Positions 4,946 through 54,247 of a stretch of DNA of 64,000 nucleotides are shown here, in pieces. Source of the stretch: an uncultured Acidobacteriota bacterium (lineage in GTDB: Bacteria > Acidobacteriota > UBA6911). Below the pieces are notes generated by a model. That model was given only the letters and a program-made list of their open reading frames with translations. It was not told where the DNA came from and searched no databases. Numbering within the stretch: the stretch's first letter is position 1; every line of letters starts with the position of its first letter. Location: the NCBI GenBank assembly GCA_963827655.1, contig CAWHCF010000008.1:96001-160000 (forward strand), given 5' to 3'. Made by a program: the position numbers and the translations under genes.

Positions 4946-5050
4946 TCTTTCTCCTCTACTTGGGTGCATGCATCGACTGGACGCAAGCGGCGTTGGGTTT
5001 TTGATCGCGGCCTCTGCATTTGGTTCCGTTGTCTCCTGTCTTGGTGCTTA

Positions 5051-5340
5051 GTCGACTGGTTCATAAATACGCTAACGTATTGGGCAGAGCCTGTACGAGT
5101 CGGCTCTGTTTTTGCCTAGGGCCGAAGGCCCGTTAGTGAGTAGCCCCGCCCGTCAGGGCGGGGTCTTCAAGACCCCACGGACACGAGGTCCGAAGGACCG
5201 GCACTCCGGCTGTGTCGCACCTTCGGCGCTCTTCTTAACGCCCGCCCAATCCCGGCCTTACGGCCGGGCCTACTCTCTGTCGGCCTTTCAGGCCTCAACT
5301 GCTTCAAAATACGTTAAAGCGTAATTGCGAACAGCAGCAC
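5051..5340. mobile_element. MITE-like element B (same end family as A, opposite orientation) with a different REP-like interior
   Basis: Ends GTCGACTGGTTCATAAATACGCTAACGTATT and AATACGTTAAAGCGTAATTGCGAACAGCAGCAC, flanked by TTA/TTA. Interior hairpins GGGCCGAAGGCCC, CCCCGCCCGTCAGGGCGGGG, GGTCCGAAGGACC, CCCGGCCTTACGGCCGGG, GGCCTTTCAGGCC. Confidence 0.7.
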
Positions 5341-26266: not shown

Positions 26267-26577
26267 CTAGGAGCGAAGCTTGCTTCGCCATCCCCGCCTG
26301 GGAGGCCGCCCGCTATCGCCAGAATGATCGACAAGGTGTCCTTCTCGGCGACGGGTGTCTCAAGATCCTTGAGAAAGCGAACATCCTCATCGTTCAGATA
26401 CAGGTTGATAAAACGGGAGGCCTTGGAGTCTGAAGAGAAGAAGCGGGCCGCTGCATCGGGAAACCGGACTTTGAATTTTTCCAGCACTTCGCCGACGGTT
26501 TTTCCGTCGAGCACCACTTCCGACTCCTGTTCGGTGTACTGGCGAAGAGGGGTAGGAATTCGCACCATCACACTCAT
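26267..26577 (-). CDS. MoaD/ThiS/CysO-like ubiquitin-fold sulfur carrier with C-terminal extension (3' end uncertain)
   Basis: VRIPTPLRQYT, RFINLYLNDEDVRFL..LETP and SIILAIAGG (Gly-Gly ends at 26305). Start overlaps the stop of the upstream gene. Confidence 0.88.
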
Positions 26578-27848: not shown

Positions 27849-27872
27849 GAAGCATTTCCCCTTTCTAATGGC

Positions 27873-27903
27873 AAAAAAAAACCCTTTCCGGGGAGAAAGG
27901 GTT
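27873..27903 (-). terminator. Intrinsic terminator, expression platform of the SAM riboswitch
   Basis: Minus strand AACCCTTTC-TCCCCG-GAAAGGGTT followed by a T run, between the aptamer and the ribosome-binding site. Confidence 0.85.
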
Positions 27904-27924
27904 GGCAAAATTCAGCGTTTTCAC

Positions 27925-28032
27925 CAACTCATCTTCCAGAAATTCTTTCTGCAGGAATTAGCACCATGCTGTCGAAACAGCTGGTTGCCGTGGCTTCACC
28001 GGGCCAGTCCCTCCGCCACTCTGGATAAGTTG
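27925..28032 (-). ncRNA. SAM-I (S-box) riboswitch
   Basis: Minus strand CTTATCCAGAG-TGGCGGAGGGACTGGCCCGGTGAAGCCA-CGGCAACC..GGTGCTAATTCC..GAAGATGAG carries the SAM-I consensus blocks and P1 pairing. Confidence 0.96.
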
Positions 28033-34530: not shown

Positions 34531-35428
34531 ATGTTTCGGAACTTGAAGGCACGTCATCGCTCGACTCGCCCGCCGGACAAGATCAAGCACCTCACTTTGA
34601 AGGTGCCGCGGTCCGCCGAGGTGGAGGAGTATGTTCCGCGGCTCTATTTCGAGGCTCGGATCGATTTAGGCGACGTTCGCTCGGGTTTTCGTGATACGTA
34701 CAGCTTGAACAAGGCCCTGGAGATCCATCCCATGGAAGGCGATGTGATGTGGACTCCGGACATGGCGGTGGCCGTCGATACCTCCCTGATTGAGCTGGGC
34801 TTGCCGCCAAGGGAAAAGTCACGGGAACTCCCCGACTACCTGGACGCAGCCCAGATATCGCGGCTTGAGACGCTCTTCCTGGCTTTCCTGATGCGCTATT
34901 TTGAAGTGCGCGTGTTCAGGAACTTCGCGCTCAATGTGTATTCGGGGCCCGGCGAGAGTTTGGAGGATTTCAAGCTGCGCTGCCTGGATATCCTCGGCGA
35001 GACCTTTCGCAGGGATCTGGATGCCTTGCATGAGGTGCTGGTCCGAAAACTGGAGCAGCTCCGCGAAAAGGACTTGCGAGAGAGCGCCGGCCTTACTTCA
35101 ACCCTTGATTTCGATATCGCGAAGATTGATTCCCAGGTGAAGAGCAGAATACATGACGTTTCGGAATCGATCACAAGCCTCTTCCTGAACACCGAATTGA
35201 GTCTCAATTCAAACCAGGACGCGCCTTCCTATCCCTCTCCGACGACGGAATTCGATCAGCGGCTGTCGCTCCTGGAAACCGAGACGCGGCATGCAAATCC
35301 AGCGTCTGACGGGTCTGTATCAGGACAGACTCCGGAACATCGACGAATACGTGGTGCATCCGAATCTGAAAGACATTCATCTGGTTCGAACTTGCATCTT
35401 GTGGATGCCGGCCGAGGCGATGTCATGA
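34531..35428 (+). CDS. Hypothetical protein with helical/coiled-coil C-half (apparent frameshift near 35290)
   Basis: The alternative frame continues [14 protein letters not shown]...[13 protein letters not shown] to a TGA that overlaps the mnmA ATG. Confidence 0.6.
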
Positions 35429-36552
35429 GCAGATTTCGAGTGGCCGTCGCGATGAGCGGAGGAGTCGATAGCTCGACGGCGGCTGCTATTCTCAAAGAGC
35501 AGGGATACGATCTGGTGGGATTCTCCATGCAGCTTTGGGATCAAAGAAGGAACGGCTCGGCGGGGGACGAGCACCGAGCGGGCCGTTGCTGTTCCCTCGA
35601 TGATCTCTATGACGCCCGCAGTGTCGCCGCCCGGCTCAAGTTTCCGTATTATGTGCTCAACTTTCAGGCAGAATTCGAGCAGGCAGTAGTGAGAAACTTC
35701 ATCGAGAGTTATCGAAGCGGCTACACGCCTTCTCCGTGTGTCCTATGCAACTCGCATCTGAAGTTTGATCACCTGGTGCAGATGGCCGACGAAGTCGAAG
35801 CCACCCACGTGGCAACCGGGCACTACGCGCGAGTGAAGCATGACCCCGAAACCGGCCGCTACTTGCTCTACAAGGGACGCGATCGTGATAAGGATCAATC
35901 CTATTTCTTGTTTGGACTGACGCAGAATCAACTGGGCCGGGCCATGTTCCCCCTGGGTGAGATGGAGAAGTGTCAGGTGCGACGAATCGCCCGAGAGCAC
36001 GGCCTGGAGGTAGCCGACAAGGCTGAGAGCCAGGAGATTTGTTTCATACCGGATGGAGACTATGCAGGCTTTATCGAGCGCCAATTCAGTGAGGTTTGCG
36101 GCGACGCTCAGGATTCCCATCCATTCAGGGAGGGGGAGATTGTCGACGAATCCGGGCAGATCATAGGAAAGCATCCGGGCATTCATCGCTTTACGATCGG
36201 CCAGCGGCGCGGATTGGGCGTTGCAAGTGGAAAACCGCTTTACGTCATAGATGTGATCCCTGCGGAAAACCGGATTGTTGCCGGCGAGCGCCGGCAACTG
36301 GCGAGAGCAAACTGCCGTGTCGAGCGCCCGAACTGGATATCGATTCCGTCCTTGGAAGCGCCGCTTCGAGCGGCGGCAAAAATTCGATCGCGTCATCCGG
36401 AAGCCCCTGCCACGATCAGGCCTTTAGGGAATGGAGATCTGGAAGTTGAGTTTGACTCCCCGCAGTTTGGTGTTTCGCCGGGTCAAGCCATCGTATTTTA
36501 TCAAGATGAGCAGGTCGTGGGCGGAGGCTGGATAGCTCGTCACCCCTCATGA
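35425..36552 (+). CDS. mnmA: tRNA-specific 2-thiouridylase MnmA
   Basis: [48 protein letters not shown] and PGQAIVFY motifs. Confidence 0.97.
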
Positions 36553-37697
36553 GACGAATCCTCATTGTAGCTGGCGAGGCTTCCGCCGACAGATATGGTG
36601 CCCGTCTGGTTCGCAGGCTGCAGGCGAGACGCGGGGAAGAAGAGCTTCGTTTCTATGGCACGGGGGGTGATGAGATGCAGCGCGAAGGCGTGGAACTCCT
36701 CTGCCACATACGTGAACTTGCAAGCATCGGCCCCCGGGAAGCGCTGGCGAACTTAACGAAATACTTCGAAACTTTCCAGAATCTAGTCCGGGTCTCTCAA
36801 AAGGATCCGCCGGCGCTCGCCATACTACTCGACTTTCCCGAATTCAATCTGCGGCTGGCCAAGAAGTTGAAACGGGCAGGAATAAAGGTGGTCTACTACA
36901 TCAGCCCCCAGCTTTGGGCCTGGCGGAGCGGGCGAGTTCGCATCGTTCGCCGGTATGTTGACAAGATGCTGGTTATCCTTCCTTTCGAGGAGGAGTTCTA
37001 CCGGTTACGTGGAGTCGACGTCGAATTCGTAGGGCATCCATTGCTGGAGGATTTTAGTCCAAACCTCAATCGCGTGGCGTTTCTGCGCCGGCTCGGTTTC
37101 GATCCCGAGCGCACGACCGTTGCTCTGCTCCCGGGTAGCCGGCGCAAGGAAGTGGAGTATATGCTTCCTACGCTGCTGAAGACTGCGCAGCGTATCCTCC
37201 GACGAATACCTGCCCAGTTTCTAATCTCGGCGGCTCCCGCGCTGGAAAAACAACATCTGCTCCGGATTGTCCGGGAAGGGCTGCGCGATGATCTCGAGGC
37301 TCCCTTCTTCAAAATCGTGACCGTCGATGCTCGCGACATTCTCGCCAATTCGGATTTCGCCTTCGTCAAGAGCGGCACCTCCACGCTGGAGGCTGCGCTG
37401 GTGGGGACGCCATTCTTGATCATCTACAAAATCTCGCCCGCGAGCTGGTATTTGGGCAATATTCTCATTCGTACTCCCTTTAAGGGGCTGGTAAACTTGA
37501 TTGCGCGAGAAGAGATCGTACCGGAGTATTTGCAGCGCGATGCCACCCCGGAGTCCCTTTCCCATGCGGCGCTCGAGTATCTCCAGAATTCAGAGAAGGC
37601 TTCCAGGATGAAATCCCGCCTGTCGGGAATTCGTGAGAAGCTGGGAAAGTATTGCGCCTCGGAGAGAGCAGCCACGACGATTGAGGGTTACCTCTAG
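36549..37697 (+). CDS. lpxB: Lipid-A-disaccharide synthase
   Basis: [42 protein letters not shown] and IVPEYLQ motifs. Confidence 0.96.
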
Positions 37698-37739
37698 TTC
37701 TCCAGGTTTTCCTGGGAAGGGTTGGGTAGGAGAAAAACA

Positions 37740-39752
37740 ATGAGTCACAAGCGGTTTCCTCTGGTTGTGCTCGCCGTCGTTCTGGCCGGCCTTGCGCCGG
37801 GTCTCTATCCGCAGGCAAAGCGGGCCGCCGGGAAAATGCCCCAGATCGATGTCGAACACTATGCCATCCAGGCTTCGCTGAATCCTGATGCTCACGAGAT
37901 CAAGGCAACCGCCTCCATAATCTTCAAGCCGTTGGAAAACACCGATATTGTTGTGTTCGAGCTAAGCGAGAATCTGTCGATTCAGAAGATCACGACTGAA
38001 CAGGGGGTCGAACTTGAATTCGGCCAGGATGAAAGCGGTCCGGGGATTGTTTCGGTTCGATTCCCTCAGCCACTCTCCTCCGGGAAGGCGATGACCATTA
38101 AGGTGGAGTATTCGGGAGGATTCGACCAGGACCGGTACAGCCGCTTTTACGCCCGAGACCAGAGCAGTGCCTATATCGGCCAGGAGGGGACCTACCTGCT
38201 GTACTCGGCAAAGTGGTTTCCGGTTAGCAAATTTCTCGTGGACCGGGCTACGGCTTTCTTGGAGGTCACCGTGCCACTCGGAATCACCGTGGTCGGTCCT
38301 GGAACCCAGCAACCCGTGGTCACGAAAGGGATCACCGAAACCTTCGGCTGGCTGAGCAAGCAGCCCATTCTGCCCAACACGATCGTTGCCGGACGATACT
38401 TCGAAAAGAAAGTGCGATCCGGCAACATCTCGATAGACTGTTTCGCGCGAGAGGATCACCTGGCAGCCATTGAAAAACAAGCTGAACTGGTGGGAAAGAT
38501 TCTTGAATACTACAACCAGACCTTTGGGCCTGCTTTATCGGGAGACAAATTCAGGCTGGTTGAAGTAGATGATAAGCTCTCGATGCAGCATGGAACCATG
38601 GGCTCCATCTTCATTACGCGCCGGGAGCTGACCTCCCCTTCGGTGCGTCAGCTGGCGCGCAGGGTTGCCTATCAGTGGTGGTTGGAATCGGTGGGAGTGC
38701 AGAGCACGGAGGACCTCTGGTTGGTGGATGGCATGTCGTACCTTTCGGCGGCGCTTTACCTGGGACACAGCGGCGGGCCGGATGTCATGCGAGAGGAGCT
38801 CAATAGCCTGGCAGTCCTCGGGTTGAAGTTCGAAAGCAAGAGCGCGATTCGAGTGGGACTGGGTCTGGGTTACCGGACCGAGCCTTATGAGTCCGTGGTC
38901 GCGGGCAAGGGAGCATGGGTTGTCAACATGCTTCGCCATGTGCTCGGTGAACCAAAATTCAATGAGCTGCTCCGGCAGTACGTAAAGGAATACGCCGGAC
39001 GCGGAGGTTCGACGGCAGGTTTTCAGAAGCTGGCCGAGCGAATCTATGGAAAGGAACTGGGCTGGTTTTTTTCGGAATGGATCGACACGATTGGAGTGCC
39101 CGAGCTCCAGACCAGCTATGTCGTATTCAAAACCCCCGACGGCTTTCGTGTATCAGGAAGCGTGACGCAAGACCGCGACCTCTTTCGAATGCCTCTGGAA
39201 ATCGAGGTGCAGACGAAAGGGAAGACCGAGAGGGGATCGATCGAGGTTACCGGCAAATCGAGTACGTTTGATATCAATGCCTTTACCTTGCCGACCAGGG
39301 TAGTCCTGGACCCGGAAAACAAGATTCTTCGAGACTCCAAGGAACTGCAGATCTCCGTTCAGCTGTCCTTGGGCAACGACCTCAAGGAAAAAGGTGATTT
39401 CGTAGAGTCCATTCGGGCCTTTGAGAACGCAATCAAGTTGAACCCCCGCAGCTCTCTGGCCCACTTCCGGATGGCGGAGGTTTTTTACGAACAGTTTAAC
39501 CTGCAGGCGGCGGCAAACTCATTTCGCGACGCTCTCAACGGAGACAAGAATCCGAGCTGGATCGAGGTTTGGTGCTATATCTATCTGGGAAAAATCTACG
39601 ACATCCTCGGCCAGCGACAGCGAGCCCTGGCCGAGTACAATAAAGCCATCAACACAAAAGATGACACGAACGAAGCTCAGGCCGAGGCTCAGAAGTGGCT
39701 GGCGACTCCGTTTACCAGAGAGCGCACCACAATGGACAAAGAATCAAAGTGA
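37740..39752 (+). CDS. Exported M1-aminopeptidase-fold protein with C-terminal TPRs, lacking HExxH
   Basis: Signal peptide. LARRVAYQWW...DLWLVDG replaces AHExxHQW...WLxEG. KGAWVVNMLR, LGWFFSEW, LDPENKIL, then TPR helices. Confidence 0.8.
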   Translation: MSHKRFPLVVLAVVLAGLAPGLYPQAKRAAGKMPQIDVEHYAIQASLNPDAHEIKATASIIFKPLENTDIVVFELSENLSIQKITTEQGVELEFGQDESGPGIVSVRFPQPLSSGKAMTIKVEYSGGFDQDRYSRFYARDQSSAYIGQEGTYLLYSAKWFPVSKFLVDRATAFLEVTVPLGITVVGPGTQQPVVTKGITETFGWLSKQPILPNTIVAGRYFEKKVRSGNISIDCFAREDHLAAIEKQAELVGKILEYYNQTFGPALSGDKFRLVEVDDKLSMQHGTMGSIFITRRELTSPSVRQLARRVAYQWWLESVGVQSTEDLWLVDGMSYLSAALYLGHSGGPDVMREELNSLAVLGLKFESKSAIRVGLGLGYRTEPYESVVAGKGAWVVNMLRHVLGEPKFNELLRQYVKEYAGRGGSTAGFQKLAERIYGKELGWFFSEWIDTIGVPELQTSYVVFKTPDGFRVSGSVTQDRDLFRMPLEIEVQTKGKTERGSIEVTGKSSTFDINAFTLPTRVVLDPENKILRDSKELQISVQLSLGNDLKEKGDFVESIRAFENAIKLNPRSSLAHFRMAEVFYEQFNLQAAANSFRDALNGDKNPSWIEVWCYIYLGKIYDILGQRQRALAEYNKAINTKDDTNEAQAEAQKWLATPFTRERTTMDKESK

Positions 39753-39758
39753 GGGCGC

Positions 39759-39954
39759 CGATTCGGATTGCGGATTTCGGATTGCGGATTGATAATACCT
39801 CGATTTCAGGCAATTCCGGATCGGTTGTTCTAAACGAGAGACAGTTCCGCCGGTTCTGGGGTTCTATCGCGAATCACAGACGAATGTTCGACCCCTCCAA
39901 TCCCTCATCCCCAGTCCGCAATTCACAGTCAGACACAGTCCGTAACCCGCAATC
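39759..39954. repeat. Inverted heptamer-repeat element (CGGATTG type)
   Basis: CGGATTGCGGATTTCGGATTGCGGATTG ... degenerate CAGTCCGCAATTC..GTCCGTAACCCGCAATC. Confidence 0.75.
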
Positions 39955-40504
39955 GTTAGCCTGGGGTAAGGTCGCCCAGAAACTGCGCGTCCCTGCAGGC
40001 ACGCTCCTGGGAGTGGTATTCCTCGTCCTCATGCACCCCTCCCGGCGATCGCTCTGGATCGGAGGAGTCATTGCAGGCGCCGGCGCGGTGCTTCGGATCT
40101 GGGCGGCGGGTCATATTGAGAAGGGAAACGTACTGGCACAGGGCGGCCCTTACGCGCTCACCCGCAATCCTCTTTACCTGGGATCCTTCTTCATGGCTGT
40201 CGGAATCTTGATCGCAGGGCAGGGTTATTGGCTGCTGATACCCTTTGGGCTCTTTTTTGTGTCCTTCTATTACGCGGTCATGCGAGCGGAGGAACAGGAA
40301 CTGGCGCAGCGGTACGGCGACCGTTTTGGAGAATACGCAAGAAGAGTCCCGCTGTTTTTGCCCAGTTTCAGCGGACCGGCAACGAACCCCTCTACTTTTC
40401 TTTGGTCCCGGGTGATCAGGAACCGCGAGCATCGCACCACCCTGGGACTCTTCTTCACGCAGCTGTTTCTGGTTCTCAAGAGCTGGGTCGAAACGTCCCC
40501 CTGA
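39884..40504 (+). CDS. ICMT/PEMT-family integral membrane methyltransferase (start uncertain, could be GTG at 39749)
   Basis: LRIWAAGHI, GPYALTRNPLYLGS and EEQELAQRYGDRFGEYARRVP motifs. Confidence 0.85.
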   Translation: MFDPSNPSSPVRNSQSDTVRNPQSLAWGKVAQKLRVPAGTLLGVVFLVLMHPSRRSLWIGGVIAGAGAVLRIWAAGHIEKGNVLAQGGPYALTRNPLYLGSFFMAVGILIAGQGYWLLIPFGLFFVSFYYAVMRAEEQELAQRYGDRFGEYARRVPLFLPSFSGPATNPSTFLWSRVIRNREHRTTLGLFFTQLFLVLKSWVETSP

Positions 40505-40738
40505 TTTCCGCTTATCCGGTTGATCGCCAAGAAGGTCAGAGAAACTATAAGACTAGGGGGTTCACTCTATATAGAATTCAATGGACGCGGCAGCAAAAAG
40601 TTGGTAGCTTTGGGCCCGTGCATTTGTTTCTTTAATCGTGGGTTAGGCCCGCCTGTTTCGACGCGGGTCGACTCAGCGGAAGGAAAGATCATTTCGGACG
40701 ACTGAACCAAGCACCGGCACAACGACGAACGGGGTGGA

Positions 40739-42709
40739 TTGATGTATACGGATCATATGTTCCGGGATGAGGAAGGGCGTACCTTCTTAAAACGCTGGAC
40801 AGGCTCGTCTTTTGTGTCTGGAATTTCAGATTTGACGTGGAAGGTTTTGCAGGCCGTGAACCGGCGGCTTCCGGAGGGGGAACTTCCCACCCCCCAATGG
40901 GCGCCGGGTAGAATGCTGAAAAGCTACGAACGGTCGGCGCCACCGTTAGGCTTTCCCAGATCCACAGACTCCCTGTGCCCTCGCTGTGTTCCTGAGGTGC
41001 GCAGCGCCATCATCAGGGGCGAAGCGGATCTCAGTATCCTTGCCGCTAACCATCCTGGAGAAATCAAGGCTGAGATCGTCGAGGAAGCCGGCCGCGTCCT
41101 CATGCGCAAGACTTGCCTGAAACATGGGGTATTTGAAGACGTCCTGTCGTCAAACGCCGACTTTAGCCGGCGCATCGAGGGCCTCTTCTTCGGCCGGGAC
41201 TTCAAGTGCGCCGAGGACGAGAAGATTCATCGCCACGGCAGTTCCACCATCAAATTTGGCCGCGGGGCGGTTCTCACTGTCGACCTCACGAATCGCTGTA
41301 ACATGATGTGCAATCCGTGTTTCATGGACGCCAATCAGGTAGGTTATGTCCACCAGCCTGAGTTTGAAGATATCAAGGCGATCCTCGACCGAGCCGTTTC
41401 CTTCAAGCCCCGCCGCCAGGTAATCGTCTTGTTTTCGGGGGGTGAGCCGACCCTCTCTCCGTTCTTCATCGATGCCGTAGCCTACGCCAAGAAGATCGGC
41501 TTCTACCGCATTATGGCCGCGACCAACGGGATCCGCTTTGCCCAGAGTGAAGAGTTCACGCGCGAAGCGCACGAGGCAGGACTCCACGGGGCATACCTCC
41601 AGTTCGACGGAGTCACCAACGAAAAGAATCAGCATCGGGGAGTGGGGAACCTTTTTGACGTGAAACTGCAGGCGGTCGAGAACATGGCCAAAGTGGGGAT
41701 GAAGACCACTCTGGTAACGACCATCGTGAATGGCGTCAATAATGATGGAATCGGCCCGATTGTCGATTTTGCCATTCGCAACATCGACAAGATTCAGACC
41801 ATTGCCTTTCAGCCCGTTTCTTTCACCGGTCGGGATGAGGAGATAGAGGACGAGCTAAGACAGGCGCAACGATACACCCTGGCTCAAATGGTTGAGGATC
41901 TGAAGGTTCAACTCAAGGCCGATTGGGAGCCGATGCGGGACTGGTTTCCGCTCTCGTCGTACAGTGCTTTCACGAGCGTGATGGATCTGCTCCAGGGAGC
42001 GGATGCACCGTGGGGCTGGAGCGCCTGTAACTGCCACCCGAACTGCGGCATATTTACGCTTCTGGTAGTCAATCGGCGAACGCGCGAGTGGATGCCTCTG
42101 TTCAAGTTTTTTGACTACGAGCAGTTTATTCGCGACGTGGCGGTGATTACGGACACGGCGCGAGGAAAGACGATGACCGCCGCTCAGCTGGCGCTTTCAA
42201 TCATGCGCAACTTCAAGGCCGACCGCGCGCCCAGAGGGTTTCCAATTTCGCAGATCGTGAACCTCTTCAGGCCCAGCTCCGAAAGATCGGATAGCGACCG
42301 GAACGACCGTATGAAGACCCGTTCGAAAGAGGACGACTGGCGCGTCCTTTGCGTGGAAGGCATGTGGTTTCAGGACCTCTGGACCTACGATTTCCGCCGC
42401 ACAGAAATGTGCGTCATTCCCTACGGAACGCAGGAAGGAGAAATCTCATTTTGCGCGTACAACACCGGCGTGGGCTGGCGCCAGATCATAGAGAATATGC
42501 ATCAGACCGCAACCCTGGCTGAGTGGCACAAGACCCAGGGACGACACGAAATCTTTGCCAAGGGAAAGTCTGTCCAATTGCCGACGACGGAGCATAGTCT
42601 GGTTCTTCCCGTATTGAACCAAAGCGAAAGCGGGTCAGGGTGCTGCGACAATCCAGGCCTACTGGAAAAGGACCGGGAACTTCTGGCAACTATCAGGACC
42701 AGCCGGTAG
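40739..42709 (+). CDS. Radical SAM enzyme of the tetraether synthase (Tes/GDGT-MAS) family
   Basis: SLCPRC...KTCLKHG rubredoxin-like site, DLTNRCNMMCNPCF, FSGGEPT, ATNGI, YLQFDG, FQPVSFTGR, HPNCG and MWFQD..YDFRR..C..PY....ISFCAYN. Confidence 0.85.
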   Translation: MMYTDHMFRDEEGRTFLKRWTGSSFVSGISDLTWKVLQAVNRRLPEGELPTPQWAPGRMLKSYERSAPPLGFPRSTDSLCPRCVPEVRSAIIRGEADLSILAANHPGEIKAEIVEEAGRVLMRKTCLKHGVFEDVLSSNADFSRRIEGLFFGRDFKCAEDEKIHRHGSSTIKFGRGAVLTVDLTNRCNMMCNPCFMDANQVGYVHQPEFEDIKAILDRAVSFKPRRQVIVLFSGGEPTLSPFFIDAVAYAKKIGFYRIMAATNGIRFAQSEEFTREAHEAGLHGAYLQFDGVTNEKNQHRGVGNLFDVKLQAVENMAKVGMKTTLVTTIVNGVNNDGIGPIVDFAIRNIDKIQTIAFQPVSFTGRDEEIEDELRQAQRYTLAQMVEDLKVQLKADWEPMRDWFPLSSYSAFTSVMDLLQGADAPWGWSACNCHPNCGIFTLLVVNRRTREWMPLFKFFDYEQFIRDVAVITDTARGKTMTAAQLALSIMRNFKADRAPRGFPISQIVNLFRPSSERSDSDRNDRMKTRSKEDDWRVLCVEGMWFQDLWTYDFRRTEMCVIPYGTQEGEISFCAYNTGVGWRQIIENMHQTATLAEWHKTQGRHEIFAKGKSVQLPTTEHSLVLPVLNQSESGSGCCDNPGLLEKDRELLATIRTSR

Positions 42710-42758
42710 CGATAGTGGGAACTGCCCGGAGGGGACACGATGGACTGTCCCCAAAAAC

Positions 42759-42794
42759 AGACGCAGGTTTTCGTGACCTGCGTCTTTTTGTTTT
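42759..42794 (+). terminator. Intrinsic terminator after the radical SAM gene
   Basis: AGACGCAGGT-TTTCGTG-ACCTGCGTCT followed by TTTTGTTTT. Confidence 0.8.
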
Positions 42795-43903: not shown

Positions 43904-44908
43904 ATGGCCATCATCGAGGCTCGACAGCTATGCAAAGAGTTCCGAGTCTTTAAGCGGCGTGAAGGCGTTTGGGGGGCGGTAAAGGATCTCTTCCGGCGCG
44001 ACTACGAAACCCTCGCCGCCGTCAATGGGATTGATCTTTCCATCGAGGAAGGCGAATTCGTCGGATACATTGGACCTAACGGAGCCGGAAAATCTACCAC
44101 GATCAAGATGATGACCGGCATTCTCGTCCCCACCTCGGGAGAGATCATCGCCAATGGCTTTAACCCGTACCAGGACCGGACACGATATACCAAGACCATT
44201 GGAGTGGTCTTTGGCCAACGCACCCAGTTGTGGTGGGACATCGCAGTCATCGAAAGTTTCAAGCTCTTGCGCAGAATCTATGATGTCTCACAGGAAGATT
44301 TTCGCCATCGCCTTGGATTCTTCGGCGAACTTCTGGGTCTAGACGAATTCCTGCACACTCCGGTCCGCAAGCTGAGCCTCGGGCAGCGGATGCGCTGCGA
44401 TATCGCGGCGGCTCTGATGCACCACCCGCGAATCCTCTTCCTCGACGAACCGACTATCGGTCTCGACGTCGTGGCCAAGGCTCGGATTCGGGAGTTTCTA
44501 AAAGAGATCAATCGTACCCTGCGCTCGACAATCCTGCTTACTACTCATGACCTCTCCGACATAGAGGAGCTCTGCCGGCGGATCGTAATCATCGATCAAG
44601 GCAAGCTTCTTTACGACGGGTCGCTGGACGGACTGCGGCAGCGACTGGGACGTTTCAATCAGATCAGCATCCATTTGCAGGACCGCCATCACAGGCAGCA
44701 ACTCGATCGGGAACTGGCCAGCGGCAATGGTATTCAATGGGAGCGTGTGGACGATTTGACTTATCGCATTCGCTACAACCGCGAACAGGTTTCATCAGCC
44801 GAGATTATTCGCAAGATCGTCAATACGGTCCCGGTCCGCGATATTTATATCGAGGCCCAGCCGATCGAGGATATCGTCAAGACTATCTACAGTCGCGGGC
44901 TGGACTGA
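43904..44908 (+). CDS. ABC transporter ATP-binding protein
   Basis: GPNGAGKSTT, VVFGQRTQLWWD, LSLGQRMR and LFLDEPTIGLD motifs. Confidence 0.95.
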   Translation: MAIIEARQLCKEFRVFKRREGVWGAVKDLFRRDYETLAAVNGIDLSIEEGEFVGYIGPNGAGKSTTIKMMTGILVPTSGEIIANGFNPYQDRTRYTKTIGVVFGQRTQLWWDIAVIESFKLLRRIYDVSQEDFRHRLGFFGELLGLDEFLHTPVRKLSLGQRMRCDIAAALMHHPRILFLDEPTIGLDVVAKARIREFLKEINRTLRSTILLTTHDLSDIEELCRRIVIIDQGKLLYDGSLDGLRQRLGRFNQISIHLQDRHHRQQLDRELASGNGIQWERVDDLTYRIRYNREQVSSAEIIRKIVNTVPVRDIYIEAQPIEDIVKTIYSRGLD

Positions 44909-44915
44909 GCCTGGG

Positions 44916-45719
44916 ATGAAACGAAAGTTCGAGCTGTATTTTGAATTCGCCAGGGTAGCTTTCCTCAAGATTCTGGCTTATCGCCTTCGGTACTTCACCG
45001 GCATCGTGTCTTATCTGGTCAATGTCTCCGTCTACTACTTCATCTGGCAGGCTATTTATGCCCAGAGCGCTCAGATTGCCGGGTTCAACCTGTCGCAGAT
45101 CGTCACTTACGTGGCGGTGGGCTGGATTATCCGCTCGTTTTATTTCAACAACATCGACCGCGAAATCGCGGCGGAGGTAATCGAGGGAAAGATTGCCGTC
45201 AACCTGATCAAGCCCGTGGATCAGCAACTGATGTACCTCTCTCAAACCGTCGGCGAATGTTGTTTCCGCGCCGTACTTTTTACTCTGCCGGTCGGCCTGG
45301 TCGTGTTTCTGATCTATCCCGTAGGATTGCCTTCCTCGGCCTCGTCTGCCGGTTTGTTTGTCCTGAGCACCGTTTTGGCTCTTCTTATCTTTGCCTGTAT
45401 CAATTTCATCGTGGGTACGTTCGCGCTGCAGCTTCAATCGATCGTGGGAGTGATCCGGGCGAAGTATTTCGTGGTCGAGTTCCTGTCGGGACTCCTGCTT
45501 CCGATTACCTTTTTCCCGGCCAGCTTCCAGCGTATCCTTTCCTACCTTCCGTTCCCCCATATAAGCTATACGCCGCTTCAGATCTACCTGGGCAGGTTGG
45601 AAGGAAAGGCCGCGTGGCAGGCGCTGGCAGTCCAATGCCTCTGGGTCGCCGTGCTGTTTCTTACCGGCAAATCATGCTGGAAATTCTTCACCAAGCGGTT
45701 ATCGATCCAGGGAGGATAG
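44916..45719 (+). CDS. ABC-2 (DUF990-like) permease
   Basis: Multi-TM protein, LAYR, G.IAVNLIKP, FLSGLLLP and terminal IQGG. Confidence 0.9.
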   Translation: MKRKFELYFEFARVAFLKILAYRLRYFTGIVSYLVNVSVYYFIWQAIYAQSAQIAGFNLSQIVTYVAVGWIIRSFYFNNIDREIAAEVIEGKIAVNLIKPVDQQLMYLSQTVGECCFRAVLFTLPVGLVVFLIYPVGLPSSASSAGLFVLSTVLALLIFACINFIVGTFALQLQSIVGVIRAKYFVVEFLSGLLLPITFFPASFQRILSYLPFPHISYTPLQIYLGRLEGKAAWQALAVQCLWVAVLFLTGKSCWKFFTKRLSIQGG

Positions 45720-45722
45720 AGA

Positions 45723-45921
45723 TGACGATTGACGATTGACGATTGACGATTGAAGTGTGGCGGCGGCCGGACGATAGCGTTTCATTCGTCAGTCGTCCAT
45801 CGTCGGTTCTAGATTACCAGAAAGGTTGGAATTGATAGAGAGTGGCAGGAGATTGACCGATTGAAGCGGCTAACGGGGGCATTGGGTTTCAATCGTCAAT
45901 CGTCAATCGTAAATCGTCAAT
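45723..45921. repeat. Inverted heptamer-repeat element (TGACGAT type)
   Basis: (TGACGAT)x4 at 45723 and a complementary ATCGTCA array at 45889-45921, with degenerate units inside. Confidence 0.9.
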
Positions 45922-45925
45922 TGGA

Positions 45926-46717
45926 ATGAAGAACCTGATTGTTTTGCTCTGGCAGTACTTCGGACAATACGCGAAGACTCGACTTGCCTACAAGACCGAT
46001 TTCTTTGTGGCCTGTTTTAGCAGCATTCTCGCGACAGTGGCGGGTTACGGGTTTGTTTTGGTGCTCTTCACCCGGATTCCGCATCTGAAGGGTTGGAGCT
46101 TCGAAGAGGTGCTCTTTGTCTACGGCTTCTCCCTGATTCCGATGGGACTCTTCAACATCGTCAGCCTGAACTTATACGAGTTCGGTGATGCCTACATCAT
46201 CGATGGTAAGTTCGATCGAGTTCTTCTCCGCCCGGTTCCCTCCCTGTTTCAGATCCTGTTCGAAACCTTCCGCCTGGAGTCGCTGCAGGAGGTTGTCACC
46301 GGATTGCTGGCCGTCGGCTACTGCTCGATGAAGCTGGATATCCCTTGGAACGTTGCGAACATGCTACTCTTTCCGGTTCTGATTCTTTGCGGGGCGGTAA
46401 TTTATGTGTTTGTATTTGTGATCATCGCCAGTGTGAACTTCTGGGTCGAAGACCGGATCGGGATTGCGCCTCCCGTCTACAACATGATTGCTTTCGGGCG
46501 CTACCCGGTTACCATCTATAATGTTTTTATACAGTTCATTTTGAATTGGATCATTCCATTCGCATTCGCCTCTTTCTACCCGACGGTCCGTTTTCTGGGG
46601 AGAAAGGAGTTCATGAATCACTTTTATCTGATCCCGGTCGTGACCGGCACCGTGGTGGTTCTCGGCATGCTGGTCTGGCAACGAGGGGTTCGTGAGTACA
46701 AGAGTACAGGGAGCTAA
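45926..46717 (+). CDS. ABC-2 (DUF990-like) permease
   Basis: GWSFEEV, GKFDRVLLRP, RYPVTIY, IPFAFASFYP and terminal YKSTGS. Confidence 0.9.
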   Translation: MKNLIVLLWQYFGQYAKTRLAYKTDFFVACFSSILATVAGYGFVLVLFTRIPHLKGWSFEEVLFVYGFSLIPMGLFNIVSLNLYEFGDAYIIDGKFDRVLLRPVPSLFQILFETFRLESLQEVVTGLLAVGYCSMKLDIPWNVANMLLFPVLILCGAVIYVFVFVIIASVNFWVEDRIGIAPPVYNMIAFGRYPVTIYNVFIQFILNWIIPFAFASFYPTVRFLGRKEFMNHFYLIPVVTGTVVVLGMLVWQRGVREYKSTGS

Positions 46718-48154: not shown

Positions 48155-48295
48155 TTTCTTGGCGTCCTTAGGCGCTTAGTGAAACGTTCAAACCGACATG
48201 TTCTCGTTCGCGAGGGCCTTTCGTTCGGGGCGAAGTCCCCGAACGAACCTTAGCATCTTCCAGTGGTTTTCATTGCGGTATTGTTGCCACACACT

Positions 48296-49297
48296 ATGGT
48301 ACTGGCCAGGTATAACTGCGACAGGAACCGACTGATCGAAGCGGTAGGCCGATTTAGCCGAAAGCGAATTCTGGTTATCGGCGACGTGATGCTGGACCGT
48401 TTCATCTGGGGTGCTGTCTCCAGAATCAGTCCGGAAGCGCCGGTTCCGGTCGTCGAAATTCGGAGTGAAAGCACCTGCCTGGGCGGCGCCGCCAACGTTT
48501 CTGCCAACGTGAGCAGTCTTGGCGCTGTTCCGATTCCCATCGGGGTGGTTGGGAGCGATTTCGAAGGGAAGCGGCTTCAGGAGGAGTTTCGCGCGCTGGG
48601 AGCTCCTGTGACCGGGCTGGTCGCTGACCGCGAGCGCGCAACCAGCGTCAAGACACGCATAATCGCGCATAACCAGCAGGTCTGCCGCACCGACCGCGAG
48701 GACCGGATGCCGCTTTCGGCCGCCATTCAGGAAAGAATATTCCGCCAATTCAAAGCCGCGCTAGAAAGGGCCGACGCGATCATTATTTCAGATTACGCCA
48801 AGGGACTTCTCTCCAGGCCTCTGCTCCGGAAGATCCTGCCCGCGGCGCGAGCTGCGGGGAAGATCGTGTGCATCGATCCCAAACTTCGGAACCTTGCCGC
48901 CTACCAGCCGGCCACGGTCATCACGCCCAATACACAGGAAGCAGAGCGGGCCTCCGGAATTGCGATTTCCAATACGCGAGAACTGGTGCTCGCAGGCAAA
49001 AAGATCATCAGACTAACCCGAGTGCGGTACTTGCTTGTGACGCGCGGAGAAAAAGGAATGGCTCTTTTTGAAGGGGACTCCCGTGTGACGCACATTCCAA
49101 CGGTAGCCCGGGAAGTATTCGATGTTACCGGCGCCGGCGACACGGTGATTTCCACGCTTGCTTTAGGGCTAGTGTCGCGTCTGTCGATCCTGGAAGCAGC
49201 CGTGCTGTCGAATATTGCGGCCGGTATCGTGGTAGGGAAGCTTGGCACAGCCTCGGTGACACCAGAGGAGCTAGTCTCGCGGGTTCGAGATTCCTGA
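48296..49297 (+). CDS. rfaE1: D-glycero-D-manno-heptose-7-phosphate kinase (RfaE domain I)
   Basis: GDVMLDRF, RISPEAPVPVV, GGAANV, SDYAKG, ITPN and DVTGAGDTV motifs. Confidence 0.95.
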   Translation: MVLARYNCDRNRLIEAVGRFSRKRILVIGDVMLDRFIWGAVSRISPEAPVPVVEIRSESTCLGGAANVSANVSSLGAVPIPIGVVGSDFEGKRLQEEFRALGAPVTGLVADRERATSVKTRIIAHNQQVCRTDREDRMPLSAAIQERIFRQFKAALERADAIIISDYAKGLLSRPLLRKILPAARAAGKIVCIDPKLRNLAAYQPATVITPNTQEAERASGIAISNTRELVLAGKKIIRLTRVRYLLVTRGEKGMALFEGDSRVTHIPTVAREVFDVTGAGDTVISTLALGLVSRLSILEAAVLSNIAAGIVVGKLGTASVTPEELVSRVRDS

Positions 49298-49306
49298 CGA
49301 CCTTAA

Positions 49307-49492
49307 GGCCTGGTTTCTCTTGGCTGCGTAGTCCGGCACCCTCAGGATCGCGCCCCTTCGGGCTGCGGCCCGCAGGCCTGCTGGCTTTGTTGCTCGCTCC
49401 TCACGTACCGACCCGCGTACGCATCGTCGCTCGCGCCTCGCCAGCGTGCCTGGGGCCTGCCGCAGAACGTGAGCTTATTTCTGCGCGAACCC
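49307..49492. mobile_element. Divergent, left-truncated copy of the 233-bp MITE
   Basis: Core AGGATCGCGCCCCTTCGGGCTGCGGCCCGCAGG... and right TIR TATTTCTGCGCGAACCC + TAA are retained. The left end differs but is also preceded by TAA. Confidence 0.8.
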
Positions 49493-50652
49493 TAAGAAGG
49501 GCTCTTGGCGTCTGCGCGTCGTTGGGATAAGCCTGCGGTCCGGGCCAGGATTCGCTCGCACGCTTCAAAAACTCTTTCGACCGAGATCTCCAGGATGCAC
49601 TTCGGCTCTCCAAAGGCCTCGCAGGTATATCCCGGGCAGGGCATGCATGGCAGATCGGACCGAACCAGTTCATAGTCCGTGCCCCACGGATGCCAGGCGA
49701 CAAAGTTCGAAGATCCCCACACCACGACGACCGGTTTCATGAGCGCCGCGGCTGCATGAGTCGCACCGCCGTCGTTTCCTACAAAAAGCCGGCAATCCTG
49801 AATGAGAGCGAAGAGCCCGGCGGCATCAAGATCCGACCAGTAGAAATGGCTCCTGGACGCGCTGTGCGCTATCTTGTGCAAGGTACGGGATTCGTGAGGG
49901 GCTCCTGTGAACACTACCGGCAGCCCGTACCGCTGCTCAAGCCGATCTCCCAGCTGGGCGAACTTTCCTTCTTCCCACTGCTTGGTAAAAAGGGTTGCGG
50001 TGGGCGCTATCAAGAAATAGTGGTCGAGCCTGATGCCGCTGCGCCGAAGCCGGTCTCGCACTCGATCGGTGGCGAGCGGATCGATCTGCAGAGTGCTGCG
50101 CGGTTTGTCCGAAACGGGAAGCCCGAGCCAGCGAAGAAGCGTCAGCTGGTGTTCAACTGTGTGAAGACGGCTTCGCTGCCAGACTTCCGAAGCCGGGGGG
50201 ATGCGGACGTTGTACGCCCATGCGGCACGATAGCTTGCGTGGCCGATCCGGAGCTTTGCTCCGCTTGCGAGCGTGAACAGCAGCGAGGTTGTGCCGCCAT
50301 GGAGGTTCAGGACCGCCCCGTACTGCCGCCGGCGAATCTCGAGGAGCGCTCGAATTCGATTCCAGCCGCCGGAAGAGTGGTTTCGCGGTCTGACGATCAG
50401 TGTTTCGTGAACAGCGGGATGGCGCGAGAAAACCGAAGCGTAAGGGGTCTCGCTGAGTACGTCCAGAGCTAAATCCGGGCGCCACCCGTGAAGCGACTCG
50501 ATCAGTGGAAGAGTGAGGATCGAATCTCCGAGTGAACGCAGGCGGATGAGGAGAATCCGAGGAATTTGCTGCAGTACTCCAGCTAAGTCAGCCGGATTGC
50601 GGATTGCGGATTGCGGATTGCGGATTAAACCATCGTGGCGAGCAAATTTCAT
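49492..50652 (-). CDS. Glycosyltransferase family 9 (LPS heptosyltransferase-like; start uncertain)
   Basis: ILLIRLRSLGDSILTLP, KQW, FVGNDGGATHAAAAL and CMPC...CILEISVERV. Confidence 0.9.
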   Translation of the reverse strand: MKFARHDGLIRNPQSAIRNPADLAGVLQQIPRILLIRLRSLGDSILTLPLIESLHGWRPDLALDVLSETPYASVFSRHPAVHETLIVRPRNHSSGGWNRIRALLEIRRRQYGAVLNLHGGTTSLLFTLASGAKLRIGHASYRAAWAYNVRIPPASEVWQRSRLHTVEHQLTLLRWLGLPVSDKPRSTLQIDPLATDRVRDRLRRSGIRLDHYFLIAPTATLFTKQWEEGKFAQLGDRLEQRYGLPVVFTGAPHESRTLHKIAHSASRSHFYWSDLDAAGLFALIQDCRLFVGNDGGATHAAAALMKPVVVVWGSSNFVAWHPWGTDYELVRSDLPCMPCPGYTCEAFGEPKCILEISVERVFEACERILARTAGLSQRRADAKSPS

Positions 50653-50739
50653 CCAACCAAAACCAGTTTCTTCCTCACGCTGAAATCCGCGCAAACCGGT
50701 TTTTTCAATCCGCAATCCGCAATCCGCAATCTGCCAATC
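50593..50739. repeat. Inverted heptamer-repeat element (CGGATTG type)
   Basis: (CGGATTG)x4+ at 50593 and (CAATCCG)x3+ at 50706. Confidence 0.9.
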
Positions 50740-50741
50740 GA

Positions 50742-50919
50742 TTAAGCTGTCCTCCTCAATGGTAGCTTCGTCGACGAGCATGACGGGAATGTCATCGCGA
50801 ATGGGATATACGCGATGGCACTTTACGCACTTGAGCCCGGTTTCATTCGAAGTCAGACGCACCTCTTCTTTGCACACAGGGCACGCCAGAATCTCCAAGA
50901 GGTCTTTACTTATAGTCAT
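50742..50919 (-). CDS. Trm112/YcaR-like small protein (reads in frame into the GT9 gene as assembled)
   Basis: LLEILACPVCK...LKCVKCHRVYPIRDDIPVMLVDEA. Confidence 0.9.
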
Positions 50920-50943: not shown

Positions 50944-51542
50944 TCATGAGCGGCTCCCCAGCGCGAACTTGTTTTCGGTGCCGGTTAGAAGCCGGTGGAT
51001 GTTTTGGTGGTGTTTGGCCACAATCAGGGCCGCTCCGATGATGGCTGCCGCCAGAACCTCATTCGGCTCGCCACGCAAGTAAACGGCCAATGGGAATGAC
51101 GCCGCGGACGCAATCGACGCCAGTGAGACGTATCGAGTGAGCGCGGCGACCGCGATGAAAACCACGACAGTCAGCGCCTACCGCCTGAGGAGAGAGGGCC
51201 AGATAGGCCCCGCAGGCGGTGGCCACGCCCTTTCCCCCTTTGAATGAGAGGAAAACCGTAAACATGTGGCCCAGAATGGCGGCCACCGCCGCCATCGCTT
51301 GCCAGCCGGTATCACGCGTCAGCCAGGCTGCGGCGAGGACCGCGACATAACCCTTGGCCGCGTCCAATATGAGGGTCGCGATTCCGGCCCGCTCGGCTCT
51401 TGCGATAGACATTGGTTGCGCCGATATTACCGCTTCCGACCGAGCGGATATCGGTGCCGTGCGCGTGTTTCACCATGATATATCCGAACGGAATTGAGCC
51501 GAGGAGATACGCGATGATTAAGGCGCCAGAGCCAATGATCAT
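50944..51542 (-). CDS. plsY: Glycerol-3-phosphate acyltransferase PlsY (two apparent frameshifts)
   Basis: [44 protein letters not shown] and KHHQNIHRL across three frames. Confidence 0.93.
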
Positions 51543-52111
51543 AAGGAGGGTCTTGGTGATGCAAGATCCAGCCCGGCCAGCATCTTATAAATGGATCCGT
51601 GCGGAGTCAGGGTGCTCTGATACACACATACTTCGCGGGCTTCGAAGCTGCTCTCGTGATCGGCGCCGATCTTAATACAATCCAAGAGACGGTGTAAATT
51701 CCTTTTCCCCCGCACTCGTCCCAGAGTGAGGTGGGGTTGAAAGGGGCGCTGTTCGGCAGAGAACCCGGCTTGCGCACATGCCTGGTCGACTTCTTTATGC
51801 ACCAGCTTCAATCTTTCGACATCCCCTTCGATCCCGCACCAGATCACACGAGGGTTGCGCAGATCGGGAAATCCGCCGACTCCGTGCAACCGTAGAGAGA
51901 AGCACGATTGTGTCCCGAGGGCGCCGCGGAGCCGCTCGACGAGAAGCGGAATGGTACCCGGGTCTACTTCTCCCAGGAACTTCAGAGTCAGGTGGATATT
52001 CTGAATCAATGTCCAGCGCACATCGGCGCCCGAAGCCCGAAGAGGTTGCTGTAGCTGGTCGAGCAGTTTCTTGCAATGGTCCGGGATAGGTATGGCGATG
52101 AACGTCCTCAT
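51539..52111 (-). CDS. thpR: RNA 2',3'-cyclic phosphodiesterase
   Basis: Two HxT motifs ([16 protein letters not shown]). Confidence 0.93.
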
Positions 52112-53480: not shown

Positions 53481-53949
53481 TTACCCGTGGAGCAGCCAAT
53501 TTACAAGGTGGACGACGGCGCCTGCGTACACTCCCGCCAGCAGATCGTCAGCCATAACGCCCACGCCATTGGGGAGCCGTTCGAGCCTCCGGATGGGATA
53601 GGGTTTCCAGATATCAAAAGCGCGAAACAGTGCCGTCGCGAGCACGAGATTGGTCATACTGACCGGCACCAGGAACAAGGCGACCAGTTGGCCCGCAATT
53701 TCGTCAATGACCACGAACTGCGGGATCCTCGATTTTCTGCTTGCGCGCAACCTCGGCGGAAGCAAGAGTGCCGGCGGTCGCTATGAGGCCGATCGCGCTC
53801 AGGTGCAACTCCGGGACGATTCGGTTTGAAACTTGATGAACCAGGAAGAAGGCGAGCGTAGTCGCCAGCGAAGCATAAGTGCCTGGGGCGCCCGGGATGA
53901 GGCCCAGGTAGCATCCACTGGCAAGGAACAGCGAGAGCCGTTCCTTCAC
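53481..53949 (-). CDS. pgpA: Phosphatidylglycerophosphatase A (apparent frameshift near 53722)
   Basis: APGTYAS, VVIDEIAGQ, LFRAFDIWKP and GVMADDLLAG motifs. Confidence 0.93.
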
Positions 53950-54052
53950 GTTATTATTCGAGGTCTTCCGTGGTCGTACGTTGCGGCACGTGGCTTTCTC
54001 GCCGCAACGATCCGACGGCGTCAGGAGTCGTCGGTTCTGGCTAGGCGCGGCA

Positions 54053-54247
54053 CTAAGAACCCGTGGCGTCTTTAGAGGTGTCCGGCAGACCGTCTTCCTC
54101 TTCCTCCTGCGTTCGGGTGGGAACGCGATAGGCTTCGGAAGCCCACTTTCCCAGGTCAATCAGCTTGCAGCGCTCGCTGCAAAAGGGGCGAAAGGGATTG
54201 TCTTCGAACGACGTCTCTCTGTGACATTGGGGACATTGGACAATCAT
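54053..54247 (-). CDS. yacG: DNA gyrase inhibitor YacG
   Basis: CPQC...PFRPFCSERCKLIDLGKWASEAY. Confidence 0.93.
   Translation of the reverse strand: MIVQCPQCHRETSFEDNPFRPFCSERCKLIDLGKWASEAYRVPTRTQEEEEDGLPDTSKDATGS

Follow-up and report, generated by a model that had tools for sequence, protein, structure and literature searches.

A gene for a protein of the radical S-adenosylmethionine (SAM) class resembling archaeal tetraether synthase (Tes, also called GDGT-MAS) was analyzed in a 64,000-nucleotide stretch of contig CAWHCF010000008.1, from the genome of an uncultured Acidobacteriota bacterium (assembly GCA_963827655.1); this whole stretch is called the window below. The gene product, here TesA, keeps the archaeal fold and the ligands of three metal sites, is without those of the N-terminal [4Fe-4S] cluster, and is encoded by the rarer (type A) of two paralogous forms, which recurs near lipid A biosynthesis (lpx) genes. 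We give about an even chance to the reading, drawn from this analysis, that TesA is a lipid-tail coupling enzyme of the Tes/GDGT-MAS kind: an accessory paralog with two [4Fe-4S] clusters and a rubredoxin-like iron.

The open reading frame (ORF) begins with a TTG codon at 40739; the ATG at 40742, the next codon, was judged the likelier start. On the 656-residue protein, Pfam matched Radical_SAM at residues 183-344 (2.3e-20) and Zn_ribbon_HMPTM, the zinc ribbon of the MJ0619 family, at residues 73-137 (3.6e-12). When TesA was compared by HMMER with the sequences of solved structures, 7TOL (M. jannaschii GDGT-MAS/Tes) was the sole strong match (E 7.5e-63, query residues 109-598), and the second best had an E of 1.3e-5. 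More than 120 homologue clusters were found at 76-99% identity. Given these clusters and the 7TOL match, the motif pattern of TesA is not a product of chance. A search of the ESM Atlas with TesA returned solely its own acidobacterial clusters. Some homologues carry the JGI label "7,8-dihydro-6-hydroxymethylpterin dimethyltransferase," which was considered as the identity of TesA and dropped; we take this label to be a superseded annotation of MJ0619.

An AlphaFold2 model of TesA was built from an alignment of 36 sequences spanning both the Tes clade and the clade of TesA (predicted local distance difference test [pLDDT], 84.4; predicted template-modeling score, 0.86). A Foldseek search with the model returned 7TOM and 7TOL at the top (E 3.4e-39 and 3.7e-38), followed by an entry at E 3.9e-9. 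VIA-align superposed model residues 71-603 on 7TOM with a Z score of 45.3 and a root mean square deviation of 2.4 Å over 483 of 498 residues, at about 30% identity; the next VIA entry, MoaA (Z 21.3), matched the radical SAM core alone. The predicted model thus has archaeal Tes/GDGT-MAS as its only whole-length structural relative and, at the level of whole-fold superposition, shows the four-domain Tes fold with its lipid pockets. Because 483 of the 498 residues of 7TOM align, the four-domain scaffold is retained, including the domain that has no cluster.

GDGT-MAS has been described with four metal sites, namely, a rubredoxin-like iron and N-terminal, radical SAM, and C-terminal clusters (Lloyd 2022, cited here, like the other papers below, for the parts of it that were available), and a 2026 review also enumerates four metal sites in Tes. 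Residue conservation was read from the 36-sequence alignment, and motifs were tallied in 121 type A proteins, i.e., TesA and its 120 best homologues. In GDGT-MAS the rubredoxin-like iron is bound by C9X2C12X20C33X2H36 (Lloyd 2022). The equivalent residues C83, C126, and H129 of TesA are invariant and C80 is nearly so; the motif is kept in 120 of the 121 type A proteins, and its spacer measures 42 residues in TesA versus 20 in MJ0619. The C-terminal [4Fe-4S] cluster of GDGT-MAS has a labile ligand, Met439, and forms a substrate-sulfur intermediate, with Tyr459 adjoining it (Lloyd 2022). By alignment, M542 and Y562 of TesA are the equivalents of Met439 and Tyr459, and M542, C572, and H433 are nearly invariant across both clades. 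GMWFQD was found in all 121 type A proteins, and MC[VI]IPYG and FCAYN were each found in 120. The ORF and every motif listed by an earlier sequence-only reading of this DNA were recovered, in the order that it had given, with YLQFDG at residue 286, FQPVSFTGR at 357, CHPNCG at 432, GMWFQD at 541, EMCVIPYG at 556, and SFCAYN at 570. The structure prediction that it had suggested as a check yielded the four-domain fold, and the alignments showed the ligands of all sites save the N-terminal cluster. Three proteins that form the nearest outgroup of type A (P0125, P0129, and P0140) have also lost C-terminal cluster ligands, HPDASV or HATHGQ replacing HPNCG; these probably have an activity other than Tes-like coupling.

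The N-terminal [4Fe-4S] cluster lies at the surface of GDGT-MAS, bound by C73, C77, and C80 together with a His (Lloyd 2022). TesA lacks these four ligands. Its residues 151-177, FFGRDFKCAEDEKIHRHGSSTIKFGRG, occupy the place of CPxxCGxCxxH in M. jannaschii GDGT-MAS and in the Tes-proper representatives, and HRHGSSTIKFGRG faces the Cys stretch of the N-terminal cluster in the HMMER alignment with GDGT-MAS. The loop holds one Cys, C157, which is not conserved in the type B paralog, and no replacement for the cluster ligands was found in the TesA alignment. Confidence in the model falls in the same region (residues 151-180; pLDDT blocks of 69, 53, and 75). The sequence-only reading had noted that a CPxxCGxC-type auxiliary-cluster motif was missing, and indeed none of the 121 type A proteins carries CPxxCGxC. 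The loss is real but is not peculiar to this gene: it is a trait of a whole sister clade (40 of 40 rows in the second tree described below). Nor is it unique to the bacterial clade, since P0206 and P0261 (fully) and P0268 (partly) are without the N-terminal cluster Cys yet score 484-584 bits, above the Tes family cut-off. The N-terminal cluster therefore seems, from these sequences, to be dispensable in parts of Tes proper too.

A protein that has lost one cluster and coexists with a more widespread paralog could be decaying or already inactive. We consider decay highly implausible, because the catalytic motifs are intact in 120 or 121 of the 121 homologues, because type A proteins are 68-87% identical across 80 fetched loci with titles ranging from Terriglobia to Blastocatellia and Pyrinomonadaceae, and because matching contigs occur in RNA libraries. 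Contigs from four such libraries (three studies) cover positions 40565-42717 at 95-99% identity, and close relatives of TesA thus appear in soil RNA libraries. These contigs are consistent with TesA expression, DNA carry-over being possible. They stop near 42717, which as a contig limit does not mark a transcript end, and at an identity of at least 95% the adjacent lpxD gene is uncovered save for about 35 bases; this gap says nothing about cotranscription, because the runs were found with this very stretch.

If TesA works as its archaeal relative does, two membrane-lipid tails would be held in pockets beside the radical SAM cluster. SAM would be cleaved twice, with H abstracted from a terminal carbon; the first radical would be parked on the Met-ligated C-terminal [4Fe-4S] cluster, and that carbon would then be joined to the second tail. 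Acidobacterial tails would be iso-C15-type chains, so that the products would be membrane-spanning lipids of the iso-diabolic acid type. GDGT-MAS has been described as binding bacterial phospholipids (Lloyd 2022). As the surface N-terminal cluster is gone, electrons would have to take another route to the catalytic clusters, and TesA would run on its two [4Fe-4S] clusters and the rubredoxin-like iron. Since fold and ligands are kept and the N-cluster ligands are absent, Tes-like coupling with a changed electron path is a fair proposal. In its favor, table S21 of Sahonero-Canavesi 2022 marks Pyrinomonas methylaliphatogenes, which has a type A gene 75% identical to TesA (L021), as a producer of membrane-spanning lipids. 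For Pyrinomonas, whose genome holds type A, that table appears to have an empty Tes column. It also counts in favor of coupling by TesA that Mss, the other known coupling enzyme, went undetected in acidobacterial genomes (see below).

Several observations weigh against Tes-like tail coupling by TesA. First, TesA scored 301.6 bits on the NCBIfam Tes model (NF045702), for which the equivalog cut-off is 450; the type B paralog scored 323.4 bits. The model was run on 31 proteins, chosen from 38 representatives of at least 480 residues among 150 listed. Representatives with the N-cluster motif scored 376.8-645.2 bits (13 of 18 above 450), and the closest relatives of TesA without it scored 141-414 bits. 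The second-best NCBIfam match of TesA was TrsS (NF045646), at 199.4 bits and so far below the cut-off of 490; Tes-proper representatives also match TrsS, at 253-371 bits, and this match therefore reflects general kinship only. Second, TesA lies outside Tes proper, in a sister clade, by two trees as well as by score. The first tree (32 rows; LG+C20 PMSF; the frameshifted-looking P0146 dropped) separated a 12-row motif-less clade, with TesA and its paralog, from a 20-row Tes clade, with a Shimodaira-Hasegawa-like approximate likelihood ratio (SH-aLRT) of 100 on both sides. In the second (54 rows; LG+G4; rooted on the rows with the N-cluster motif), Tes proper comprised 14 rows (support 100), four acidobacterial genes among them, and the cluster-less clade comprised 40 rows (support 100), all without the N-cluster ligands; within it, type A was monophyletic (13 rows, support 99), and a core group of type B had 17 rows (support 100). 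The two trees came from quick searches (IQ-TREE for the first) without bootstraps, and several rows are long-branched. With a score under the cut-off and a position outside Tes proper, TesA may have changed in function. Third, the activity of bacterial Tes homologues is still described as unconfirmed in the available parts of 2025 and 2026 papers. Fourth, bona fide Tes, N-terminal cluster included, occurs in some Acidobacteriota, where it may be the true tetraether maker. Fifth, type B, being the widespread form, is the more obvious candidate for making iso-diabolic acid in general, and the particular task of type A is correspondingly less certain. Finally, a lipid A-related substrate agrees with the persistent lpx neighborhood described below no less well than a phospholipid does. 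The sequence-only reading, which proposed tail coupling with altered electron transfer, had itself named grouping outside the Tes clade as a reason to give the proposal up. TesA does group outside that clade proper; the fold, the radical SAM, C-terminal, and rubredoxin-like ligands, the Tyr, and the N-cluster loss all agree with the remainder.

A shifted function could mean that the Tes scaffold serves another radical reaction on a lipid tail (methylation, desaturation, cyclization, or cross-linking of an already coupled lipid) or acts on a hydrophobic nonlipid substrate. The sister-clade position, the sub-cut-off score, and the lost cofactor would all suit such a change, as would about 70 extra N-terminal residues and the 22-residue insert, and the constant presence of a second Tes-like match would suit a follow-up step on a type B product. 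Related archaeal radical SAM enzymes are described as modifying glycerol dialkyl glycerol tetraethers (GDGTs) in such ways. However, the Met ligand, the C-terminal cluster Cys, the Tyr, and the radical SAM motif on which the GDGT-MAS mechanism depends are all kept, and the Pfam scan of TesA found no cobalamin-binding or methyltransferase domain. On balance, we regard a different reaction as unlikely, and Tes-like coupling remains the preferred reading.

The TesA protein served as the query in a survey of type A and type B across 301 genomes of the phylum with a completeness of at least 90%. The unpublished genomes G145, G023, and G048 entered its tallies, and that of LpxD below, but supplied no sequence; the table was counted by hand. 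The genome of the window (G000; 8.18 Mb, 53 contigs, 90.3% complete) has two Tes-like genes, the second being the type B paralog, at whose locus no lipid genes were found. A match at an E of 1e-30 or lower was present in 181 of the 301 genomes and absent from 120. Type A (at least 69% identical) occurred in 23 genomes: 7 of the family of the window, its own genome included, and 16 of the 19 genomes of family f37. In 118 genomes the best match was type B-like, with an identity of about 50-59% and an E under roughly 1e-130, and 40 had solely weaker matches (E 1e-34 to 1e-104). Type B is thus widespread and usually single-copy in the phylum, and type A is rarer. Each of the 23 type A genomes has at least two Tes-like matches, the second being type B wherever it could be placed. 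A heterodimer of A and B (1,307 residues together) was considered and dropped, co-occurrence being its sole support. Beyond the survey, type A was found on contigs of P. methylaliphatogenes K22, a Chloracidobacterium metagenome-assembled genome (MAG), and "Candidatus Versatilivorator," as well as on MAG contigs of Pyrinomonadaceae, Blastocatellia, and Terriglobia. Five genomes were tested with the Tes family model. The four from the weak tier each have a Tes gene above the cut-off (501-619 bits), and the type A-bearing one has sub-cut-off Tes-like genes only; the N-cluster motif was present in all four of the above-cut-off genes whose ORFs were read, out of five (L111 being the fifth). In describing the gene as Tes-like, the sequence-only reading was right; that it is the rarer of two paralogs, and that a hairpin precedes lpxD, had been overlooked.

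Type A neighborhoods were compared in 80 loci, the best matches among species-representative genomes. At least one of LpxA, LpxB, and LpxD was present within 6 kb at 63 of these loci and an LpxD-like gene at 59; of the 48 that have 3 kb or more of sequence on both sides, 35 have an LpxD-like gene within 6 kb. The synteny survey that the sequence-only reading had called for thus showed the lpx proximity of its gene to recur. Three arrangements were seen. In the first, LpxD comes 70-700 bp after TesA and in the same orientation; in the second (Blastocatellia and Pyrinomonadaceae), the order is lptD(-), lpxB(+), lpxD(-), lpxA(-), and a divergent TesA(+); in the third (Versatilivorator type), LpxD1-MurJ lies about 3-6 kb upstream of TesA, with a PhyH-family gene just downstream. 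None of the three occurs in 17 of the 80 loci, several of which are short. Genes of this PhyH family (Fe/2-oxoglutarate dioxygenase) follow type A at 88-93 bp in L006, L008-L010, and L032; in L011 the distance is 507 bp. By the positions listed for the survey genomes, a separate sample, TesA adjoins LpxD in the window's family in 6 of 6 genomes. In family f37 the two lie within about 5 kb in 8 of the 16 type A genomes, all members of genus g77 being among the unlinked. As a control, 19 type B loci from 19 genomes, hand-picked for long contigs and avoiding unpublished genomes, were inspected for 8 kb on each side: LpxA, LpxB, LpxD, MurJ, LptD, or the methyltransferase was found near type B in 0 of 19. 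These figures are given as counts and not as a test, because related genomes are not independent.

In the window, the order is LpxB, an M1-peptidase/tetratricopeptide repeat (TPR) protein, an ICMT-like methyltransferase, TesA, LpxD, an ABC transporter, a SprT-like protein, an unknown protein, heptose kinase, and heptosyltransferase (Table 1). The neighbors named by the sequence-only reading (lpxB, the ICMT-like gene, lpxD, plsY, pgpA, and heptose genes) were all found, plsY in broken form and PgpA as a weak match. Among NCBIfam models, the methyltransferase came closest to Leptospira LmtA (lipid A 1-phosphate O-methyltransferase), but its 61.3 bits fall far short of the cut-off of 325. The LpxD next to TesA is one of two in the genome; the other (G000 C29:206071-207078; L087 8069-9103, +) adjoins murJ and is 37% identical to it. 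Both exceed the LpxD equivalog cut-off, and many genomes of the phylum have two LpxD matches.

Table 1. Positions of TesA, its metal-site motifs, its paralog, and neighboring genes. Positions are those of the window except for the paralog, which is on contig C43 of the window's genome (G000); L numbers denote compared loci.
Feature	Position	Strand	Basis or remark
Type A Tes-like radical SAM gene (TesA)	40739..42709	+	Open frame, 656 aa; Pfam, NCBIfam, and 7TOM match
Rubredoxin-like site C80xxC83...C126xxH129	40976..41125	+	Alignment; ~22-residue insert vs Tes proper
Degenerate N-cluster loop, residues 151-177, ...HRHGSSTIKFGRG	41189..41269	+	Replaces CPxxCGxCxxH
Radical SAM motif C187x3C191x2C194	41297..41320	+	Invariant in 36 sequences; 121/121 type A proteins
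C-terminal cluster ligands C436, M542, C558, C572 and Y562	42044..42454	+	Align to GDGT-MAS residues
Type B paralog	G000 C43:89078-90841	-	51% identical to TesA; same N-cluster motif lost
LpxB	36549-37697	+	Pfam LpxB 5.4e-93
M1-peptidase/TPR protein	37722..39752	+	Same position in L013, L028, L030
ICMT/PEMT-like membrane methyltransferase	39695..40504	+	Pfam PEMT 3e-8; upstream of type A in L007, L013, L028, L030
Terminator-like hairpin	42759..42785	+	11-bp stem, then T run; between TesA stop and lpxD start; consensus scan
LpxD, second copy in genome	42814..43869	+	TIGR01853 316.8 bits vs 242.5 cut-off; adjoins type A in most loci
ABC transporter: ATPase and two ABC-2 permeases	43904..46717	+	ATPase beside lpxD in L013, L022, L034; permeases matched only in L034
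Heptose-7-phosphate kinase (lipopolysaccharide core)	48263-49297	+	Domain scans
GT9 heptosyltransferase, N-terminal Trm112-like zinc ribbon fused	49492-50919	-	Domain scans
plsY over three frames	50944-51584	-	N-part 51312-51584, middle 51059-51469, C-part 50944-51177
PgpA, weak match	53704-54159	-	Domain scans

The recurring lpx neighborhood raises the alternative that type A performs Tes-like C-C coupling on lipid A or its precursors, joining acyl chains within lipid A or to another lipid at the cytoplasmic face before export. The linkage in three arrangements, the negative type B control, the adjacency to LpxD in the window's family and partial linkage in f37, the weak LmtA resemblance of the upstream methyltransferase, and the lipopolysaccharide core genes downstream of TesA all point in this direction. 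In the available part of a 2026 paper, moreover, iso-diabolic acid was reportedly freed solely by hydrolyzing whole cells or the residue of Bligh-Dyer extraction; the same paper reports it as glycerol bound, which counts against this alternative. A literature search on iso-diabolic acid and lipid A found no report linking them. All of the positive evidence for this alternative concerns gene neighborhood, and in many bacteria lpx genes cluster with phospholipid genes too. The terminator-like hairpin that separates TesA from lpxD in the window, a consensus-scan match and not proof of termination, speaks against an operon-level tie, as does the scatter of lipid A genes in the genome (lpxA on C23 and the other lpxD on C29). 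The linkage is absent from 17 of the 80 loci and from the whole of genus g77. LpxD-like matches occur in 297 of the 301 genomes, and intermediate ones (43-50% identity), of the type in the window, also occur in genomes without type A; there is thus no clean co-occurrence of LpxD with type A. We consider action on lipid A distinctly improbable. The more specific version, in which type A welds the iso-branched acyl chains that lipid A precursors carry, whether together or onto a neighboring lipid, and so yields a macrocyclic or membrane-spanning lipid A, has in our view a slimmer chance still. If true, lipid A coupling may explain part of the acidobacterial iso-diabolic acid that is freed only by hydrolysis.

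Other features of the window were recorded in the same scans. No RNA family was found near TesA by Rfam, and a promoter scan gave 2 matches where 4.9 were expected by chance. The plsY gene shows two apparent frameshifts, which may be assembly indels or mark a pseudogene. Two further genes look split in a like manner: overlapping ORFs encode a T2SSE ATPase and its MshEN N-domain (16146-17875, -), and two adjacent ORFs on contig C43 make up an OMP_b-brl_4 barrel (L086 1417-4703, -). Assembly indel errors may be behind these split genes; the Tes-like ORF itself is intact. A SAM riboswitch (27926-28031, -; 97.9 bits) lies directly upstream of a gene for a pyridoxal phosphate-dependent enzyme (26577-27908, -). 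Two Acido-Lenti-1 RNA motifs on opposite strands (5118-5163, -, and 5250-5295, +) adjoin a pilin-like gene (4469-4969, -), and MnmA (34531-36552, +) has an N-terminal extension of about 300 residues without a family match.

Among known systems, archaeal Tes/GDGT-MAS (MJ0619; 7TOL and 7TOM; NF045702) shares with TesA the fold, the three-Cys-plus-His rubredoxin-like site, the radical SAM motif, the Met-ligated C-terminal cluster, and the Tyr. TesA differs from it in the missing N-terminal ligands, the added N-terminal and rubredoxin-domain residues, a position in a sister clade and not nested within Tes, and a bacterial host with ester-linked, nonisoprenoid lipids. Type B of the same genome likewise has lost the N-cluster motif and retained the other ligands. 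Mss of Thermotoga and Clostridia shares the goal proposed for TesA, radical SAM coupling of fatty acid tails, which has been shown for Mss; it is set apart by its description as only remotely related to Tes, and Sahonero-Canavesi 2022 reports having detected no mss homologue among the Acidobacteria whose genomes were selected there.

TesA belongs to the loose set of acidobacterial Tes homologues already published (Zeng 2022; Halamka 2022; Sahonero-Canavesi 2022). Zeng 2022 reported 456 bacterial homologues and proposed a role in the synthesis of branched GDGTs (brGDGTs), with a homologue 32% identical in Edaphobacter aggregans and others 40-42% identical in Koribacter and Solibacter. Halamka 2022 proposed that one or both Solibacter homologues couple diethers, and Sahonero-Canavesi 2022, using strict thresholds, found Tes homologues in 3 of 14 iso-diabolic-acid-producing Acidobacteria. 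In the available parts of these papers the homologues are treated as one set; here they are split into Tes proper, type B, a related single-copy group, and the lpx-linked type A. Bacterial Tes homologues are thus an existing proposal. In the literature searched, the missing N-cluster, the A/B split, and the lpx linkage are not stated (the supplementary network of Lloyd 2022 and the tree of Zeng 2022, which were beyond its scope, may bear on them), and no paper was found that links tes to lpxD or lipid A.

Widely used proxies for temperature and pH are built on brGDGTs and iso-diabolic acid lipids, for whose synthesis in Acidobacteria there are so far only candidate enzymes. These results indicate that "acidobacterial Tes homologue" covers several things: bona fide Tes, the widespread type B, and the rarer type A linked to lipid A genes. 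A gene survey that relies on a single archaeal query and a threshold of 30% identity can overlook some of these forms or treat them as one. The fold, the metal ligands, the clade placement, the paralogy, and the synteny are results of this analysis; the chemistry, the substrate, and any division of work between types A and B are inferred. The clade is also, judged from its sequences, a natural experiment, and it suggests that the scaffold can do its work, whatever this may be, without the N-terminal cluster of Tes.

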